Source of the DNA: Dictyostelium discoideum
Lineage: Eukaryota
Length of the DNA stretch: 64,000 nucleotides
Direction of reading: 5' to 3'
Assembly: GCA_000004695.1 (NCBI GenBank)
Contig: CM000151.3
Coordinates: forward strand, 7,168,001 to 7,232,000
The stretch's first letter is position 1. Every line of letters starts with the position of its first letter. Positions 5,981-20,054 of the stretch are shown piece by piece. The notes under the pieces are model-generated. The model made no database searches, was not told where the DNA came from, and saw only the letters and a program-made list of their open reading frames with translations. A program made the translations under genes and the position numbers.

Positions 5981-6667
5981 ATGACAAACAATGACAATAT
6001 AAATAAAGAATGTAAGATTTTGGAAATAATAATATAAAAAAAAAAAAAACCATTAAAAAAAAAAAAAAAATAATTCTAACAATGTTATATAACATTTTTT
6101 TCCATAGCTACAAATTTTAAAAATGATGTAGTTACAGCATATGATAATTCATTAGATGCAATGAGTGATGGTATGAAATATGTTGGTGATTCGTTGTCAT
6201 CAGCAGCCGAAGTAACAAAAGATAAAACAATTGAAATGTATCATAAAACAACTAATGCAATGAGTGATGGTTATGAATCATTAAAATCAAAAGCAAATGA
6301 ATTAATTCACCATTCAAATGATGATGATGAAAGTCAACATGAAGATGGTGCTTCTAAAAAAGTTGAAGAATTAAAAGAGAAATCCAATCAAGTTAAAGAT
6401 GATATTAAAAAGAAGGGTGAAGAATTAAAAGAGAAATCAATAGATGTTAAAAATGAAATAAAGGATAATTTAAAAGAAAAAGGTGAGGAACTAGTTGACG
6501 ATGCTAAAGATGCTGCTCATAAAGCTTCAAATAAGATGAATGGTGTTAAAGATAATTTATCAGAAAAGATGGACGATATTAAATCTGATATGTCTGATAA
6601 ATATAAAGATGTAAAAAAAGAAACTGCTAATAAATTAAATCAAACTGCTAATAAAATTGATCAATAA
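5981..6667 (+). CDS. Small hydrophilic K/E/D-rich LEA-like protein (paralog 2). Two exons: 5981..6011 (MTNNDNINKE, donor GTAAGA at 6012) and 6108..6667 (acceptor ccatAG).
   Basis: ORF 6161..6667 extends upstream to the acceptor at 6106-6107. The upstream mini-exon begins with ATG and has a consensus donor, and the phase-1 join gives MTNNDNINKE-S-TNFKNDVVTAYDNSLDAMSDGMKYVGD... The product is about 60% identical to the 4695..5337 gene, including the MTNN start. Confidence 0.6.
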
Positions 6668-6865
6668 TAATTTTTAAGACTTTTTATTAATATTGATTAA
6701 TTTATTTATCATTTAATTATAAAATTTGATTTTATTTATTAAATTTAATAATATTTTTTATATTTGAAAGTTTATTAAAAAACATTAATGATTCATTTGC
6801 TTGGTAATCTATTTAATCACTAATCCTTTTAGTTTATGAACCACCACCATGACTATTATCTGTCC

Positions 6866-7040
6866 CATGCCAAAATTAATATGGCTGCTGAAATTAATAT
6901 GATAATTTTGGCATGGGACTTATGTCTGCTAGAATTACCATATTAATTTCGGCAACCATATTAATTTTGGCATGCACAGACCAACTATTTTAGGCTAAAA
7001 TTAATATGGCTGCCGAAATTAATATGGTAATTTTGGGCAC
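6866..7040. repeat. Composite repeat of three ~45-bp units, arranged direct - inverted - direct (about 6870-6918, 6938-6975, 6995-7038). Each unit has the form ccaaaattaatatggctgc(t/c)gaaattaatatgg(t)aattttgg. The unit is itself an imperfect palindrome: tcccatgccaaaattaatat ... atgataattttggcatggga.
   Basis: Seen directly. Unit B (ccatattaatttcggcaaccatattaattttgg) is the exact reverse complement of units A/C. This is a locally GC-enriched island inside AT-rich intergenic DNA, capable of extensive hairpin or cruciform folding. Confidence 0.7.
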
Positions 7041-7555
7041 AGAAAAATAAAAAAAAAACTCAAAGTCATTTAATTAATAATAATAATCATCTCAAATATA
7101 AAAGAATTAAAAATAATAATAAAAAAAAACTCATGGGATTAATTATAGTAACAATACTGACGACAAGAATAATTATAAAATAAAAAAAAAAAAAAAAAAT
7201 CTTTTTTTATCTTTTTATTTTTATTTCTTATTTATTTTCATGTGTTCTAAAAAAGTGGTGGTTTAAAACAATTTATTTAATTTTAAACTGTATGATTGTT
7301 TAAACAATTTCGAAATAAGTTTCTTTAATTTCTGTATTTCTTTTTTTTATTTTATTTTATTTCATTTCATTCTATTTTTTTTTTTTTTTTTTTTTTTTTT
7401 ATTTTTTTATTTTTTATTTTTTTTTTAATTATTTTAATTAATTTAATTATATAATGATTTAATAATAAAAAATTAATATTTAGAAAAGTGACTGATTGAG
7501 ATACCTGCGTTATTTTGCTTGATTAACAAAAAAAAGAATCCAAAATATGGTCCAC

Positions 7556-7955: not shown

Positions 7956-8266
7956 ATGGTAAAAACATCAATATATGTAGGAGGTTTAAAGTAATTATTT
8001 CTATTTTTATTTTTTTAAAAAAAAAAAGTATAAATAATTTACTCTTTTTTTTTAAAAATTTAAGTTCTCATATTTCTAAAGAAATTTTAAAAACAAAGTT
8101 TTCAGTGTATGGTGAAATACAATCACTTGTTTTTGTAAAAGGTAAGGAAACAGGAATATCAGAAGGTTATGCATATATTGAATATAATAATAAAGAAGAT
8201 GCTGTGAAAGCAATAGATGATTTAAACGACCAACCATTTGAGGGTAATCATTTAGAATTATTTTAG
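7956..8266 (+). CDS. Small single-RRM RNA-binding protein (~78 aa). Two exons: 7956..7990 (MVKTSIYVGGL + AA) and 8065..8266.
   Basis: Not in the ORF track. ATG GTA AAA ACA TCA ATA TAT GTA GGA GGT TTA AA|gtaatt is followed by an 74-bp intron and then ttaag|T TCT CAT ATT..., giving MVKTSIYVGGLNSHISKEILKTKFSVYGEIQSLVFVKGKETGISEGYAYIEYNNKEDAVKAIDDLNDQPFEGNHLELF*. RNP2 (IYVGGL) and RNP1-like (EGYAYIEY) motifs are present in the correct spacing. Without splicing the ORF terminates at TAA (7991-7993). Confidence 0.55.
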
Positions 8267-8767
8267 AAATTATCTAAAAAAAAAGAAATAAAATATGAAA
8301 AATAAAAAAATAAAAATTTTTAAACTTTATCTAATTCATTTTTTATTAAAACAATTCCTTTTCTTTTAAAAAAATATAAAATAAAAAATATTTTTTATTA
8401 TGAAAATAAAAAAGCAGAATTAAATTAAAACATAAAATAATTATTTAAAAAAAAACAAGGAATTTAATTTTTTTTTTTTTTTTTTAATAATTTTAAATTG
8501 GTTTTTATTTGTTAGATTATATAAAATAAAAAATTGAATAAATAACTATAAAATGACTTTCTGGATATAATAAAAAATAATCATTATTAAACCAATTTGT
8601 TTGATTACATCTTTAGATTTGTACTTTTTATTTTAGAAAAAAGAACAACCTATTACAGATAAAATTTTTTTTTTTTTATAATTTTTTTTTTTTTTATTTT
8701 TTTATTTTTTTATTTTTTTTTTAAATAAAAAGGAATCAGTTTATTGAACCGTTATATCCTTTTTTGT

Positions 8768-9255
8768 TTAATTGTGTTTTAAAATTACCCAGAGCGCATG
8801 GATTACTATAGTTGGTGAAAAAAAAAAAAAAAAAAAAAAAAAGAAAAAGAAAAAAGGGCCGAAATTAATAAATTTTCTTAATGAGTAATAATATAAATAA
8901 TAATGAATTACATAACCACCTGGAATCCAACCAAGAATCCATAAAATAATATTGACCCAGAAAACTACTGCGCATCCTCTTTAAAAATTTAAAAAAAAAA
9001 AAATTTAAAAAAAAAAAAAAAAATTATTTCAAATATTAATATTTTTTTAAACATTTAAAAAATTACTTGGAAATTGAAATATTAAAAAATAATTACCTTC
9101 TAATGAAAACAGCTAAAGGTGGGATAATGATACATAAAATGATCATACCTATTTTTTAAATTAAATAAATAATGTTAATATCCTACATTTTAAATTTTTA
9201 TTTTTATTTTTTTTATTTTTTTTTACATACCAACTTGTCTTGAACCTTCTGACAT
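8768..9255 (-). CDS. Pmp3/Rci2/Lti6-family plasma-membrane proteolipid (UPF0057), ~63 aa, in four exons on the minus strand: 9231..9255, 9097..9148, 8917..8978 (or 8920..8978), 8768..8805.
   Basis: Not in the ORF track. The minus-strand translation is MSEGSRQVG|MIILCIIIPPLAVFIR|RGCAVVFWVNIILWILGWIPG|VIHALWVILKHN*, which matches the family consensus (...ILAIILPPLGVF..RGCG..FWINVLLTILGYIPGIIHALYVI..). The donors are GTATGT, GTAATT and GTTATG/GTGGTT, with AG acceptors and consistent phases. The exon 3 donor position is uncertain by 3 nt. Confidence 0.6.
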
Positions 9256-11135: not shown

Positions 11136-14100
11136 ATGAAAAATAAAATAATTTTATTATGGTTGTTATTAATAGTGATCCTATGTACAATTTCAAATGT
11201 AAAAGGATGTGGTATGACAACACATAATACAGTGGCAAGAAGAGCATATAACTTCTCAAGTTTTGATGGTAACTATTAATGTTAATAAAAATAATGGGGA
11301 AATCAAAAACTAATTTATTTTTTTTATTTTTTATTTTTTATTTTTTTTATTTTTTTATTTTTTATTTTTTTTTATTATTTTCTTTTTTTTCTTTTTTTAT
11401 TTTTTTTTAAAATAGGTTTTGAACAATATCAAAAATATGTTTCAGAGAATTTTGATGTATTTGATGCAGGTGCAGCATTCCCAGATTTTGGATATGATTG
11501 TGGTGGATTAGCAAATGAATCAGAAGCAGCACATTGGCCACCATTTTTAAGAGCAGCAACTAAATACTTATTAGAAACTTATCCCCAACCATGGAGTTTG
11601 GATGGTATTAGATTAGCAGTATTTCTTTTAGGTGTAACTTCACATCAAATTGCTGATATTTCATGGCATTCAATTGGTGGTATTCAACAAGGTTTAATTC
11701 GTGCTATGGCAGGTCAAGATTTTAATGGTACTTATGAATTAGCTCATGGCAATGCTGATGAAGGTGGTGAATTTGAATTAGCTTATAATTATGATTTATC
11801 TTGGTTATCTGATAGTAAGTATAATATATATATATATATATATTAAATATTTAGCATTTATATTAATTATTATTATTATTATTATAAAATTTAGAATGGT
11901 ATGTGCCAATTACAGATATAAAGAATATTTTTCATTCAATGAATTATCCAAGAGTTGATGATGAAAATTTATTAAGATGTAATGCAATATTGTATGCTGG
12001 TGCAATGGGTGTTAAGATTGGTGGTAGATTTTTCTATCCTGAAATTGCAAAGAAATCACCATTCTTGGTTGACCATTATCAAGATTATTTCATTGGTGGT
12101 TTGGATGATATGTCAATTTGGACATCATATTGTTGGCCAGTATTAATGGGTTGGATGGATGGCGAAGATATTGGTGATTTTTGTTTTATTCAACCTGATC
12201 CAAATAATGATGATGACAATCAACATTTACGTTTACATCATAAACATTCAATATTAAAAAATGGTTCAAAAATTAAAGAAGCATTATCAAAATCAATTTT
12301 AAATGAAATGAAAATTACAAATAATGGTAAAGGTGTAACTTTTTCATTACCAAATTCAATGGAAAAAGCAATTAATCAAGTTTTAAATAAATTTAATCAA
12401 AATCCAATTGGCACATTATTAGAAAAATATTTACCAAATTTATTTAATAATAAAAATAAATTTTATCAAGAAAATGAAAATGAACAATATAATCATGATG
12501 AGGAGGAATTAAATATTATTGATATTGATATTGATATTGAAGAAGAAGAACAAGAAGAAGAAGAAGATAAACCAATTAGAATGTTATCAAAGAATAATAA
12601 TTTTAAAAATTATGAATATTTAAATGATAAAAAGAAATCATCATCGTCAAAATTAAAAAATAAATCTAAAAAGAATATAATTAAATTAAATTCAGATTCA
12701 AATGATTTAGGAACTAATTTTACAACTATTTATGGTCAAAATATGTATTCTTATTTTGGTAAAGATATTAGAAGCAAAGATTTGAATGGTGATGGATTTG
12801 ATGATTTAATTATATCATCACCAGGTTTTGGTGTGCCAGGTTCAATGCAAACTGGTTGTGTTTATTATATCATTTCAAATGGAAGTAGTGTTACAATTGA
12901 TGGTGGTAGTGGTTTCACATCAGAGTTTGATATTGATCAAGTTGCAACTGGTAAACTTTGTGGTAATGAAACTCATGCAAAATTTGGGTGGAATATTGAT
13001 GTATTAGATTTTAATTTAGATGGTATTTTTGATATTATTATTGGTGCACCATCTTCATCCAATGCAAATCTACAATATTTAGGTATGATATATATTTATC
13101 TTGGTGAAAAGAACAACCCTGCTGGTGAATGGAGTACAGAATCTGATTTACCAAGTATAACCATTCAAGGTATTGAATATGCTGATACTATTGGTACAGT
13201 TTTAAGAGTTGCCGATTGTAATGCCGATTCAAATGCAGATTTAATACTTGGTTCACCACATTCTGCTGGTGGTGGTACTCAACGTGGAACAGTTCAAATA
13301 TTTTATTCATCAAAAAAGAGAATCTCTGGTATTCCAATTAGTTTAAATGATGCAGATTATTATGGACATGGTGAAGTTGATTATGAATGGTTTGGTTATG
13401 AAATTAAGGTTGCAGGTCAAGGTGATAGTTCAACATTGTTGGTTGGTTCACCAAATTATCATGATGAAGAGACAGCAATTGTGAATATTGGTAAAATCAC
13501 ATCGTTCCCATATAATGTAAATTTAAATTCCTTTGATTTAAATCCAAAGTTTGTTATGGTTGGTGTTAATAAAAATGATAAACTTGGCTATAGTTATAAT
13601 ATGGTAAATGGCTCTTTATTTGGTTTGGATAATGTCAATGATATTATGGTACTTTCATTACCAACGAGAGGATTTGGTGATGATTTCGACCAAGTTGGTG
13701 AGGTGGTATTAATTGATATCGATAATCTATCAGGTTTCGTCGAGATTAAGAATGTAAATCTTTTACTCTCTATTAAAGGTACAACCAAATATTCAAGATT
13801 TGGTGAAAGTTTATTAATTGGTAAATTAGAATCAACTGATGAATTTGCTCGTCTATTCGTTGGTGCTCCATTATGGACCGATTCAATCGATACTGGTCCT
13901 GGTTGTGTTTTCACTTTCTTACCAAATCAACACCTTACAAATGATCCTGCAGTTTTAAAACAAAATATAATTAATAATACACCAGTGGTTATCTATGATT
14001 CAACTCATAGTATCAAAACTTTTAGAATTGACGATGACAGTGGTAGTAGTGGTGGTAGATCATTCAATAATAAAAGAAAAGATAGTAGATTCGGTTTTAG

Positions 14101-14209
14101 AATACTTTTATCCGATTTTAATAATGATGGTAAAAATGATTTAATAGTTAGTGCCGATCGTGATTCTTCAAAAATATTAGAAGGTGGATCAATTAATATA
14201 TTTCAATAA
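11136..14209 (+). CDS. Glycosylphosphatidylinositol-specific phospholipase D (GPLD1) homolog: signal peptide, an N-terminal Zn-dependent PLC-like catalytic domain, and FG-GAP beta-propeller repeats. Three exons: 11136..11268, 11416..11814, 11895..14209.
   Basis: The translation contains CGMTTHNTVARRAYNF..., ...HWPPFL..., LGVTSHQIADISWHSIGG, RWYVPITD and KSPFLVDHYQDYFIGGLDDMSIW. These are collinear with mammalian GPI-PLD (CGLSTH..., ITSHMAADVSWHSLG, RRWYVPV, KSPFLVEQFQEYFLGGLDDMAFW). Multiple FG-GAP motifs follow (FGWNIDVLDFNLDGIFDIIIGAP, FGYEIKVAGQGDSSTLLVGSP). Splice sites are GATG|gtaact...atag|GT (phase 1) and GATA|gtaagt...ttag|AA (phase 1). Confidence 0.85.
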
Positions 14210-14241
14210 TTGGAAAAAAACATATATACATTATTATTAAC

Positions 14242-14242
<1 letters not shown>

Positions 14243-14335
<93 letters not shown>
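14243..14335. repeat. (ATA/TAA)n trinucleotide microsatellite, about 31 units, in the 3' flank of the GPI-PLD gene.
   Basis: Seen directly: a perfect aataataat... run. Confidence 0.9.
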
Positions 14336-14464
14336 TAATAGGGAAAATCAAATACAATTGTAAATTAAATATTTAAATAAATTTTTTTTTTTTTTTTTTT
14401 ATTTTTTTATTTCTTTAAACAATAATTGATAAATTTTGTTTGTAGATAATTATTTTTAAATTGT

Positions 14465-15317
14465 TTAAAGATTACAAAATACTTGTTGATTAAATTCTTG
14501 ACAATATTGGACACCGGTTTTAAAAAATTCGGAATAGGTATATCTAATACAATTGTTTTGATTGTGAGAGTAGTATTGATCAAAGTTTGTAGAATTACAA
14601 GTTACTTGATATGCTGTACTTTCACTAGTTAATAAGCATCTATTAATTGGTGTATATCTAATTGTTGTAAATGTTTGTTTCCAATTACCACCACATTCTC
14701 CTGTATAATCAAATACAACTAATGTATCTTTTGGAATTACAATTTCTGACGAATCAATAATAGTATATATATATGACCCTGATAATTTACAATCCATTAC
14801 ACATTCATCAATTTTAAAATGTTCAATACTGTAAAAGGTTCTATATTATTATGAATTTTATATTAATATCATTATTATTATTTATTATTATTATTTTTTA
14901 TTATTATTATTAAGAAACTTACTGGCATCTATCTTCTGTATATGCAGTTTTTGAAATTGTACCATTGGCATAATCTACTCTGTAGATGTAATAATAATAA
15001 TTATCATTATCCATTAAAAGGCACTCACCGACTACAACGAATAATTCATTTTCAATTTCACTGTTATCACAATCTTGAATTGATGATGACCAACTTGCAG
15101 ATTGAGAATTACCACCATCAATATTACCTAAATTTAACATTCTTTCGTCTGTTGCAAAACTACCTGTTGACATTGGTCCTAAACCACTGGAATCAGAATC
15201 TCTACAACGATATTGATCATATTGGAATGTCTTTATTGAAATTACTGATTCACCACTAGATAAATAAAAATTATTTACTGAAACTAATATTAAAACTAAA
15301 AATGTTAAAAATTTCAT
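14465..15317 (-). CDS. Secreted cysteine-rich protein, copy A of a tandem three-gene family (~254 aa, signal peptide MKFLTFLVLILVS...). Two exons on the minus strand: 14923..15317 and 14465..14828, with a 94-bp intron (donor CA|GTAAGT, acceptor ttttacAG).
   Basis: ORFs 14919..15317(-) and 14465..14797(-) join in phase 2 through an AT-rich intron, giving ...AYTEDRC-H-IEHFKIDECVMDCKLSGSY... About 12 conserved Cys are shared with the paralogs. I recognise no family, so the fold and function are unknown. Confidence 0.6.
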
Positions 15318-15823
15318 TTTTTATTTCTATCGATTATAAAATGATTTCTTTTTTTTTAATTTATACTTGCCTTAATAAAAAAAAAAAAAAAAAAAAAAAA
15401 TTTAAACCGTAAATTATTTCCCACCAAGCGATAAAAGACGACCTTTTTTTATTTTTTAAAAAATTTAAATTTTAACATTTTAATAAAAAAAAATATCTCC
15501 GGGCTCAATTTTTTTTTTTTTATTAAGGCAAGTATAAATTATTAATAAAAAAAAAAAAAAAAAAAAAAGGAAATTTACAAAAACTTTTACAACAACCTCT
15601 TTTTTTATTAACATTATCACCAAAACAATAAAAATTTATAAAATGGCTACCTTAAAAGATAAGAAAAAAAAAAAAAAAAAAAAAAATGGTAACAAAAAAT
15701 CGGGCATGTGTCTCGTTAGGAAATTGCAGGCGCTCTTTAAATATTTTAAGTAGTAGCGTAATAATAGTATAATATAATTTTTATTTTTATTTTTATTTTT
15801 TTATTTTAAAAATAATTATATAA

Positions 15824-16702
15824 TTAAATATTACAAAATACTTGTTGATTGAATTCAGCACAATATTGAACACCAGTTTTATGTTCCATATCAGAATAAT
15901 ATCTAATACAATTGTTTTGATTGTATGAGTAGTATTGATTAAAGTTTGTAGAATTACAAGTTACTTGATATGCTGTACTTTCACTAGTTAATAAGCATCT
16001 ATTAATTGGTGTATATCTAATTGTTGTAAATGTTTGATTCCAATTAACACCACATTCTCCTGTATAATCAAATACAACTAATGTATCTTTTGGAATTACA
16101 ATCTCTGACGAATCAATAATAGTATATATATATGACCCTGATAATTTACAATCCATTACACATTCATCAATTTTAAAATGTTCAATACTGTAAAAGTTTC
16201 TATAATATATAATGATAATGTTTTTATATTAATATCATTATTATTATTATTTATTATTATTTTTACTATTATTATTATTATTATTATTATTTTTAATAAG
16301 AAACTTACTGGCATCTATCTTCTGTATATCCAGTTTTTGAAATTGTACCATTGGCATAATCAATTCTGTAGATGTAATAATAAAAGTCATCATTATCCAA
16401 TAAAAGACATTCACCAACTACAATGAATAATTCATTTTCAATTTCACTGTTATCACAATCTTGAATTGATGATGACCAACTTGCAGATTGAGAATTACCA
16501 CCATCAATATTACCTAAATTTAACATTCTTTCGTCTGTTGCAAAACTACCTGTTGACATTGGTCCTAAACCACTGGAATCATCATTTCTACAACGATATT
16601 GATCATATTGGAATGTCTTTATTGAAATTACTGATTCACCACTAGAAAAATAAAAATTATTATTGAAACCAATATTAAAACTAAAAATGTTAAAAATTTC
16701 AT
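15824..16702 (-). pseudogene. Copy B of the secreted Cys-rich family. The exon/intron structure is the same (exons about 16309..16702 and 15824..16187), but a 1-bp deletion in the signal-peptide region frameshifts the N-terminus. Either a pseudogene or an assembly indel.
   Basis: Copy B reads ...gtttcaataataatttttatttttctagt... where copies A and C have ...tcagtaaataatttttatttatctagt. Reading from the ATG at 16702-16700 hits TAA after 25 codons, and the mature-protein frame has a TAA immediately upstream. The rest of the ORF (16305..16559 and 15824..16156) is intact and 85-90% identical to copy A. Confidence 0.5.
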
Positions 16703-17218
16703 TTTTTATTTCTATCGATTATAAAATGATTTCTTTTTTTTTTTTTTTTATTTATACTCACCTTTATAAAAAAATAAAAAAAAAAAATTAAACCCGAAAT
16801 TTCTATTATTTCCAACCTACAACCAAACAGATAAGACGGAAAAGGTGACCTTTTTAAAAAATTAAATTGTTAGGGATAAAAATTGAACTCATAATTTCCG
16901 AGCCAAATTTTTTAACAAAAAAAAAAAAATTACAAAAACTTTTCCTTTTTCAACCATTGCCCAAAACTTTTTTATCAAAGTTAAAAATCCCATTTCAATT
17001 AATGATCACTATTCAAAAAAAAAATATTCATTTAATACCAATTTATAAGGAGTTATACAAAACTTATATAGATAATTTTTTTTTAAAAAAAAAAAAAAAC
17101 AAAAACAAATATTAAAAGATAATTTCGGACACTATTTAGTGGAGCGTAAAATATAATTTAATTTTTTATTATTTTTTTATTTTTTATTTTTTTAAAAATA
17201 ATTAAAATAATTATATAA

Positions 17219-17658
17219 TTAAACATTACAAAATGCTTGTTGATTGAATTCTTTACAATATTGAACACCAGTTCTGTGTTCGATTTCAGAACTATATCTA
17301 ATACAATTGTTTTGATTGTAAGAGTAGAATTCATTAAAGTTTGTAGAATTACAAGTTATTTGATATGCAGTATTTTCACCGGTTAATAAGCATCTATTAA
17401 TTGGTGTATATCTAATTGTTGTAAAAGTTTGTTTCCAATTACCACTACATTCTCCTGTATAATCGAATACAACTAATGTATTTTTTGGAATTACAATTTC
17501 TGATGAATCAATAATAGTAAATAAATATGGTCCTGATAATTTACAATCCTTTACACATTCATCAATTTTGAAATGTTCAACTCTGGAAAAGGTTCTGTTT
17601 TTTATTATATTTATTATTATTATTTTATTAATATTATTTTTATTATTATTATTTTTTA

Positions 17659-17692
<34 letters not shown>

Positions 17693-18104
17693 ATTATTAA
17701 TAAGAAACTTACTCGCATCTATCATCTGAATATGCAGTTTTTGAAATTGTACCATTGGTATAATCAACTCTGTAGGTGTAGTAATAATAATAATCACCAT
17801 CCATTGGGAGACATTCACCGACTACAACGAAAAATTCATTTTCAATTTCACTGTTATCACAATCTTCAACTGATGATGACCAACTTGCAGATTGAGAATT
17901 ACCACCATCAATATTACCTAAATTTAAAATTCTTTCGTCTGTTGCAAAACTACCTGTTGACATTGGTCCTAAACCACTGGAATCATCTCTACAACGATAT
18001 TGATCATATTGGAATGTCTTTATTGAAATTACTGATTTACCACTAGATAAATAAAAATTATTTATTGAAACCAATATTAAAACTAAAAATGTTAAAAATT
18101 TCAT
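17219..18104 (-). CDS. Copy C of the secreted Cys-rich family (~250 aa). Minus-strand exons 17713..18104 and 17219..17591 (donor GA|GTAAGT, acceptor ttttccAG).
   Basis: The true start is the internal MKFLTFLVLILVSINNFYLSSG of ORF 17709..18215. The second ORF, 17219..17818, reads through the intron. The join gives ...YSDDRC-E-VEHFKIDECVKDCKLSGPY... Confidence 0.6.
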
Positions 18105-18561
18105 TTTTTTTTTTTTTTTTTTTTTTGTATTGATATAAAAAGAAAAGAGGTTATTAAAATTAAATGAAAAAAAAAAAAAAAAAAATTGAATTTTCAAAAA
18201 AAAAAAAAAAATCACAAAAAAAAAAAACCATCAAAAAAATCACGAAAAACCATCAAAAAAAAAAATCATTAAAAATCCAATAATGACGAATCTTTTTGAT
18301 ATTTATAAACGCGTTTTTTTAGGTAATTTTTCTTTATTTTTTCTTTTTCTTTTTTTTTTTTTAAAAAAAAAATAATGGCTTTTTTAATATTAATATCATT
18401 ATTGTAAAATATTATTTGCAAATATTAGATTCTTTTAATTATAAAAAAAAAAAAAAAAAAAAAAATAAAAAATAATTCGTTTAACTTTACTTTCAACCAA
18501 TTTTTATTTTTAATAATTCTAATATATTTATAAATAATTATTTTTCATTCAATCAAGATTT

Positions 18562-18621
<60 letters not shown>

Positions 18622-18821: not shown

Positions 18822-18854
<33 letters not shown>

Positions 18855-19625
18855 GAATTTTTTTTTTTTTTTTTTTTTTTGAATTTTGAATTGTATTATT
18901 ACTTTTGATTAAAATATCTTTTTTGTCCAAACTTTTTTCTAAATCTTTTTTTATTTTATCGTCGGCTTCATGATTGATGTTTATGACATATTTGAATTGT
19001 TTTTTTTTTATTTGAGTTTTGTCTACAATTTCGCTTTTTTTTTGTGGGCATTTGCATTGCTTAATATTTGTGGTGTTGTTTGTAATTTTCATCTTATTTT
19101 CTTTCTATTTTTTTTATTTTACTTTAAAAAGTTAAGATTTATGAATGGTATTTAATTGTTTTATTGATTTTGAGGCTGGTTTTGTCTCCATAGTCTTTCT
19201 CCTTTCTTTTGTTGCTCGTATTATGGTATTATTAATTCAATGATTACCATGTTGTGATAAGATTTTTAATTTGATTCCTTAAATAGTTTGTTTTTTTCGA
19301 TCTGATTATTTTTTTCTTTTTCTTGAAACCATAGTTTGTTTTTCCAGCTTAGCAAAATTTTCAAAACCAAACAAAAAATAAATTACAATAAAGTAAAAAG
19401 ATGGCTTTTTAAAATAGTTCATTTATTTATTAATTTATTTGTTTTATAAGTCTTTTTATATGAAAAATGAAATAATCAAAAAAAGAGATTATTTGTTTTT
19501 TCTATCTGATTGAAGGATAAATTTTATTTTTTTTTGAATGGAATAACGCAATTTTTAGTTGCTTCTTCTTGAGATATATCTCATTTTATTAATTTTATTA
19601 TTACAGGTGCCTTTTTAGGTTGTAT

Positions 19626-19980: not shown

Positions 19981-20054
19981 GCCTTAGTAGCTCAGTTGGT
20001 ACGAGCGTGAGACTGAAGATCTTAAGGTCGCTGGTTCGATCCCGGCCTGAGGCA
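19981..20054 (+). tRNA. tRNA-Phe (anticodon GAA), 74 nt, no intron, CCA not encoded.
   Basis: Cloverleaf: acceptor GCCTTAG/CTGAGGC (one G-U pair), D-arm GCTC-AGTTGGTAC-GAGC, anticodon stem TGAGA/TCTTA with loop CTGAAGA (U33, GAA at 34-36, G37 as in tRNA-Phe), and T-arm GCTGG-TTCGATC-CCGGC. The A-box (TAGCTCAGTTGG) and B-box (GGTTCGATCCC) are present. Confidence 0.9.

Follow-up and report, generated by a model that had tools for sequence, protein, structure and literature searches.

Three tandem Bad/PF11912 paralogues of Dictyostelium discoideum, one of them inactivated, with a probable history of crossing-over and gene conversion

A stretch of 64,000 nucleotides (nt) of Dictyostelium discoideum chromosome 2 (GenBank assembly GCA_000004695.1, contig CM000151.3, positions 7,168,001–7,232,000 of the forward strand), hereafter the window, carries three two-exon genes arranged head-to-tail on its minus strand at 14465–18104, designated copies A, B, and C. 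The analysis supports, with a probability of about 0.6 for the reading as a whole, that these genes are tandem paralogues of the dictyostelid Bad/PF11912 family, that the array was shaped by crossing-over and gene conversion, that the middle copy has been inactivated, and that the family members encoded here may have a lysosomal bacteriolytic role by analogy with characterized Bad proteins. The array is already known, as its genes and family are recorded in dictyBase, UniProt, and Pfam, and it represents gene-family growth of an ordinary sort rather than a new kind of system; its importance beyond curation is small.

The GC content is 15–29% across the AT-rich window. Copy A (14465–15317; exon 1 15317–14923, intron 14922–14841 of 82 nt, exon 2 14840–14465) is DDB_G0276921 (Q86KQ8), and its spliced translation of 256 amino acids (aa) matched P0006/XP_642808.1 exactly. 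Copy C (17219–18104; exon 1 18104–17713, intron 17712–17595 of 118 nt, exon 2 17594–17219) is DDB_G0276925 (Q86KQ6), with a spliced product of 255 aa identical to P0001. Both are annotated genes of D. discoideum AX4 on chromosome 2. Between them lies copy B (15824–16702; exon 1 16702–16309, intron 16308–16200 of 109 nt, exon 2 16199–15824), very probably a frameshifted pseudogene in this lineage. In copies A and C, an exon 1 of 392–395 nt is followed by a GTAAGT...AG intron and an exon 2 of 376 nt, and the spliced products start MKFLTFLVLILVS. With one base restored in copy B, all copies encode proteins of 255–256 aa that start with a signal-type sequence and share 12 invariant Cys. In every copy, the intron splits the codon that comes after ...DRC behind its second base (phase 2, identical position). 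The pairwise nucleotide identity between the copies is 88–92%, a similarity far beyond chance, and tblastn of the whole window with copy A as query revealed no copies beyond A, B, and C.

This arrangement is largely as described in an earlier sequence-only reading of the same DNA, which had proposed genes for secreted Cys-rich proteins, triplicated in tandem with their two-exon structure preserved. The same coordinates were recovered for the three minus-strand genes, as were the common intron position and phase after ...DRC, and the roughly 12 conserved Cys and the quoted motifs were found in all copies, the Cys at identical alignment positions. The end of the region at 18215 had to be corrected, since it reflects only a GTG-extended open reading frame (ORF), and copy C starts at the ATG at 18104. 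The earlier intron range of 94–120 bp is explained by a second in-frame AG 12 nt downstream of the acceptor; that acceptor would give introns of 94, 121, and 130 nt (A, B, and C), whereas the reference gene models take the first one and have 82, 109, and 118 nt. All of these introns consist of (TAT/TTA)n microsatellites, and their length varies by copy and isolate from 82 to 232 nt.

Membership of the array genes in the dictyostelid PF11912/Bad family is almost certain. Copies A and C scored 96.2 bits (E = 3.6e-27) and 101.1 bits (E = 1.1e-28), respectively, against PF11912, which has a gathering cut-off of 28.6 bits; in both, the match spans profile positions 1–205 of 206, and the precomputed annotation of every close homologue was also PF11912. 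The profile was formerly DUF3430 and now bears the Pfam name 'Counting factor-associated protein A/B/C' (CfaA_B_C). Dictyostelids have 160 Bad proteins, and D. discoideum 54; these proteins share a signal sequence, at least eight conserved Cys, and motifs of the Y/FxxxxC type (Guilhen et al., 2021, PMC7886984). The array proteins resemble BadA, BadB, and BadC in the PF11912 domain, a signal sequence ahead of it, at least eight conserved Cys, several Y/FxxxxC motifs, and a restriction to dictyostelids. All 15 copies examined have the 12 Cys at the same positions, and 10 of these Cys do not vary over a 20-sequence family alignment with identities down to 23%. Each protein has three or four Y/FxxxxC motifs (YDQYRC, YTEDRC, and FKIDEC, plus YNQNNC in B and C). 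Unlike BadA, BadB, and BadC, the array proteins form a divergent subfamily with 12 Cys, compared with the family minimum of 8, and have an additional segment of about 40 residues (42–81), conserved and rich in Ser and Gly, that is absent from most members.

A phmmer search against 1.84 billion representatives returned 10 hits, and all of those with names were from Dictyostelium or Heterostelium, consistent with the earlier suggestion that the family may be lineage-specific; a word-indexed homologue search with a profile query returned 11 hits. The nearest paralogue outside the locus is P0018 (38–41% identity), whose 90% cluster includes DDB_G0279229. The sequence-only reading had not recognized the family and had named a database hit to a well-characterized one as grounds for refutation. 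A known family was indeed found, with the PF11912 scores, the annotated genes DDB_G0276921 and DDB_G0276925, and the paper on BadA, BadB, and BadC (PMC7886984), so that the expectation of an unfamiliar family was partly overturned. The only phmmer hit that is not clearly dictyostelid was P0021, a 518-aa metagenome protein from ENA built of repeated units of about 85 aa (YTWKVDLTDPV...CDGNLSATC...). It matched only residues 111–159 of copy A, in five stretches (E = 2.9e-6), and this match may be compositional or Cys-pattern noise.

Copy B is, with high confidence, a true and young pseudogene of the AX4-type lineage. The 1-nt deletion in the signal-peptide codons, already noticed in the sequence-only reading, was located at 16660–16661, where the coding strand reads AA in copy B and AAA in A, C, and the wild B orthologues (ATAATAAT vs. 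ATAAATAAT in A, C, and all orthologues). The frameshifted product is MKFLTFLVLILVSIIIFIFLVVNQ followed by a stop, and the ATG-initiated frame ends after 24 codons (stop at 16628–16630). This is the only disabling lesion in AX4 B, and restoring one base yields a 256-aa protein with all 12 Cys. The earlier reading had left the choice between a young pseudogene and an assembly error. A second assembly, GCA_054883475.1 (L001), carries the same ...TCAATAATAATTTT... in B, whereas the B genes of isolates L002 and L003, which diverge by about 2% from AX4 in the neighbouring FG-GAP gene, are intact 256-aa genes starting MKFLTFLVLILVSINNFYFSSGESV, that is, AX4 B with the A restored (intact B orthologues in other isolates, P0012 and P0007). 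The frameshift is therefore taken as real. A sequencing or assembly error in the reference might be suspected, because A/T-rich sequence of the kind around the site is prone to indel errors, and all 12 Cys and the remaining ORF of B are intact. However, the genic segments of L001 are 100% identical to those of the reference while its homopolymer lengths and contig structure differ, and AX4 B has the private changes G183V and K186N in the near-invariant GNWK motif, consistent with relaxed constraint; an error is thus very unlikely.

Slightly less likely still is that copy B remains functional in AX4 through an upstream ATG and extra small exons. Such models do exist in public databases: P0002 (UPI0000006CBF, 265 aa) and P0014 (KAM9946201.1, 278 aa) sidestep the frameshift by starting MGFLTLIKK... 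at an ATG at about 16993 (minus strand) in the spacer between C and B and by adding small exons. They are regarded as frameshift-rescue annotation artefacts, because this ATG lies in spacer DNA homologous to the non-coding spacer between B and A and is not conserved, the corresponding codon being TTG, with an insertion, in isolate L003. Moreover, the models replace the signal peptide with a sequence that is not signal-like, and in other isolates B is an ordinary two-exon gene of 256 aa. The most fitting annotation for the gene between DDB_G0276921 and DDB_G0276925 is that of a lineage-specific pseudogene. A 306-aa model from isolate L003 (P0007) joins B to a piece of a degraded fourth copy and also looks like an annotation artefact.

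Copy B probably originated by an unequal crossover between a C-type and an AB-type copy. The B–A spacer (15318–15823, minus strand) consists of the B 3' flank followed by the A promoter and 5' untranslated region (UTR), and the C–B spacer (16703–17218, minus strand) of the C 3' flank followed by the B promoter and 5' UTR. When aligned, these two spacers of about 510 bp were homologous over their full length (score 344 vs. 118 ± 16 for shuffles, z ~14). The 260 nt upstream of A and of B were likewise homologous (alignment z = 12.6 against shuffles), which bears out the earlier proposal that A and B share about 250 bp of upstream sequence and that the duplication unit included the promoter, and extends the homology to the entire spacers. 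The B–A spacer contains a TATA-like box, GTATAAAT, and GGTC, GGAAATAAT, and CGGTTTAA blocks; the blocks are common with the B promoter and are kept in the orthologous promoters of other isolates. No similarity of the region upstream of C to that upstream of A or B was detected (z = -1.1 and 1.2). The C-type promoter region (18105–18365, minus strand), with GATGG(T)n and GTGA(T)n repeats (tandem repeats at 18196–18275), is unlike the A/B promoter and is kept upstream of C orthologues. Comparison with ACTFIY (L007), a D. cf. discoideum isolate with two copies, distinguished the flanks further. The A and B promoters resemble that of its second copy, FIY_2, and the A 3' flank matches the FIY_2 3' flank; the B 3' flank begins like that of C and of FIY_1, the ACTFIY orthologue of C (TTATATAATTATTTT...TTACGCT). 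Unequal crossing-over is proposed because B combines an A-type promoter with a C-type 3' flank and the spacers are homologous throughout.

The phylogeny is in keeping with this origin. In the syntenic interval between a Metallophos gene and a Zn_dep_PLPC/FG-GAP gene, three copies are present in D. discoideum isolates, two in each of two D. cf. discoideum genomes, and two in D. citrinum. Neighbour-joining grouped the A, B, and C orthologues by copy across D. discoideum isolates, placed FIY_2 as the outgroup to A and B, and joined the paralogues of D. citrinum and of ACTFIZ (L006, D. cf. discoideum) by genome. The ancestral state would have been two copies, one C-type and one AB-type, and unequal homologous crossing-over in the D. 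discoideum lineage would have created a middle copy whose promoter and body are of the AB type and whose 3' flank is of the C type. A switch of B from A-like to C-like sequence in the last 90 nt of its coding sequence was considered as the crossover point and rejected, as comparison with FIY_2 traced most of this signal to divergence peculiar to the C-terminal loop of A. In L006, the two copies stand head-to-head (6396–7272, minus strand, and 8001–8877, plus strand), implying that one of them has been inverted at this site.

Copies have also been lost at this site. A degraded fourth copy lies between B and A in wild isolates (7003–7675 in L002 and 7115–7231 in L003); it retains a signal-peptide remnant, lacks residues ~22–93, and has a frameshifted exon 2. 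A remnant of it was also found in the two-copy relative L007 at 6747–6871. AX4 lacks the fourth copy, having lost about 960 bp between direct repeats of the 3' flank. In the AX4 lineage, the 1-nt deletion in the signal-peptide codons has, very probably, recently inactivated the middle copy.

Recurrent gene conversion, mainly in the 5' 250 nt of the paralogues, is shown by the few synonymous differences there, by substitutions shared among copies, and by an identical 5' stretch. Within each genome, codons 1–82 differ between paralogues at 0–2 synonymous sites, compared with a proportion of synonymous differences (pS) of 0.23–0.30 between D. discoideum and D. citrinum. At eight sites, two or three paralogues show the same substitution between AX4 and the wild isolates, where about 0.7 such sites would be expected under independence. 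In addition, AX4 A and B have the same 35 nt ahead of the ATG (15318–15352 vs. 16703–16737), whereas wild-isolate A orthologues differ here and resemble the ancestral-type FIY_2 5' UTR, a pattern suggestive of B-to-A conversion of this tract in the AX4 lineage. Conversion since the triplication has kept the first ~250 nt of the paralogues near-identical within each genome.

The remainder of the gene behaves differently. The ratio of the proportions of nonsynonymous and synonymous differences (pN/pS) between paralogues is 0.5–1.3 for codons 83–256 and 0.5–1.1 for the whole gene, compared with 0.15–0.39 between orthologues over the whole gene. This pattern indicates relaxed or diversifying selection on codons 83–256, with counts too small for a formal test. 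Positive selection was considered, as some paralogue pairs and segments have a pN/pS above 1, and was set aside because the counts are too small for significance. A hypervariable locus was also rejected, since the AX4-versus-wild divergence is only modestly raised (3.0–3.6% in the three genes vs. about 2% in the neighbouring FG-GAP gene). The folded domain diverges at a near-neutral amino-acid rate, the birth-and-death pattern of an effector family. Birth-and-death evolution with gene conversion is the general pattern of tandem immune-effector gene clusters. The present array resembles such clusters in that its copy number varies between close relatives (two, three, or three plus a degraded copy), in its pseudogenes and deletions between direct repeats, and in its homogenized 5' segments next to a mature domain with a pN/pS of ~0.5–1.3; it differs in being small and in that positive selection is not statistically demonstrated. 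The locus is a compact, well-resolved case in which unequal crossing-over, gene conversion, and deletion have shaped the Bad/DUF3430 effector family, and it could be useful for studying how the antibacterial repertoire of amoebae diversifies.

The protein features were assessed from the sequence and an AlphaFold2 model of copy A, built from a shallow 20-sequence alignment (predicted local distance difference test [pLDDT] 75, predicted template modelling [TM] score 0.71). The signal sequence consists of MK, the hydrophobic core FLTFLVLILVSV, and NNFYLSSG followed by E, with small residues at -3 and -1, and is predicted to be cleaved between this G and E. In the model, residues 3–19 form a helix corresponding to the signal sequence and detached from the beta domain. 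These observations agree with the signal peptide assigned to each copy in the sequence-only reading, with that of B requiring the restored base. Residues 24–31 form the first beta-strand, residues 42–81 are predicted to be disordered (pLDDT < 40), and residues 83–256 form an all-beta domain (pLDDT ~80–94). The disordered segment (window ~15194–15075) is the Ser/Gly-rich SSGLGPMSTGSF...GNIDGGNSQSASWSSS stretch of about 40 residues; it is subfamily-specific, being nearly invariant among paralogues and species and absent from most family members. The pre-protein would accordingly be organized as a cleavable signal sequence, a first beta-strand, a disordered Ser/Gly linker of about 40 residues, and an all-beta domain with 12 Cys, presumably paired as six disulfides.

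The structure prediction proposed earlier as a check for a lectin- or toxin-like fold thus gave an all-beta model, but no relative in the PDB: Foldseek found no solved structural relative (best E 0.075, TM ≤ 0.22), and the family profile had no PDB sequence match even at E ≤ 10. A structural analogy with MiAMP1/beta-gamma-crystallin has been suggested for Bad proteins (PMC7886984). Like the array proteins, Greek-key peptides of this type are secreted all-beta molecules rich in Cys for which an antimicrobial role has been proposed. The analogy is unsupported here, because neither the Foldseek search nor the PDB profile search found a relative, and likeness to solved members was seen in neither structure nor sequence. 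As the family has no structural relative, an experimental structure would be informative.

A functional reading is offered by the characterized family members. BadA, BadB, and BadC co-purify with an activity that lyses Klebsiella pneumoniae at pH ~2 from a lysosome-enriched fraction, and lysis of K. pneumoniae at acid pH increased upon BadA overexpression and decreased upon BadA depletion (PMC7886984). By analogy with BadA, the array products would be directed to the secretory/endolysosomal pathway and would cooperate with other lysosomal factors to lyse ingested bacteria in the very acidic phagosome. Their secretion or lysosomal targeting and their disulfides are likewise inferred. An antibacterial role of A and C is only tentatively proposed; lysosomal or phagosomal localization and a contribution to lysis at acid pH have been shown for BadA alone. 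The array's three genes are not mentioned in the Bad paper (PMC7886984), and the only literature found on these specific genes was an I-TASSER note labelling DDB_G0276921 'pilin-like' (PMC8280847).

That same label is one reason to consider that the array proteins are secreted or lysosomal Cys-rich proteins with another role (in matrix or adhesion, in lectin-like binding, or in nutrient handling, for example), to which the bacteriolytic label would not be transferable. The subfamily-specific conserved linker, absent from most members, the lack of a solved fold relative to guide function, and an identity of 23–27% to typical family members (in the family alignment; BadA itself is outside these figures) also speak for such a role, which we consider unlikely although it deserves more weight than a signalling function. 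In the latter, the proteins would be secreted extracellular signalling or accessory factors of the counting-factor-associated type, tuning group size or density and not killing bacteria. The Pfam title of PF11912 points to a possible extracellular signalling context, CfaA/B/C belong to the same Pfam family as the array proteins by hidden Markov model score, and the signal sequence is compatible with release into the medium. However, no link of the array genes to the counting-factor complex was found, nor was a primary description of CfaA–C in the literature searched; the sole experimental data on the family concern bacteriolysis (PMC7886984), and a large, fast-evolving, tandemly duplicating family of 54 genes suits effectors more than dedicated signals. 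A signalling role is accordingly improbable.

Several observations weigh against the proposed history and function, among them the low identity to typical family members and the Pfam name just mentioned. Pure BadA alone did not lyse bacteria (PMC7886984), so that even the mechanism of the family is provisional. Look-ups of A and C gave genome-derived records only, and a look-up of the exact B exon-2 ORF gave nothing. GCA_054883475.1, which shares the frameshift, is only presumed to be independent of AX4. A pN/pS near 1 is, with few sites, statistically indistinguishable from relaxed constraint. Finally, the 3'-flank similarity is modest, with z = 5.0 for B–C but also 4.5 for A–C, and the crossover junction is for this reason placed only approximately, within ~40 nt of the stop codon.

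Other features surround the array. A large ORF at 11903–14209 (plus strand), which converges on copy A, codes for a protein with FG-GAP repeats; in other assemblies it is annotated as Zn_dep_PLPC plus FG-GAP, a combination resembling GPI-PLD, and it serves as a synteny anchor across species. Between it and copy A lies a (TAA)34 repeat at 14238–14340. Upstream of C are a perfect 57-nt A run (18563–18619) and a 54-nt T run (18827–18880), and the only tRNA of the window, a tRNA-Phe(GAA) gene, is located at 19981–20054 (plus strand), about 1.9 kb from copy C.

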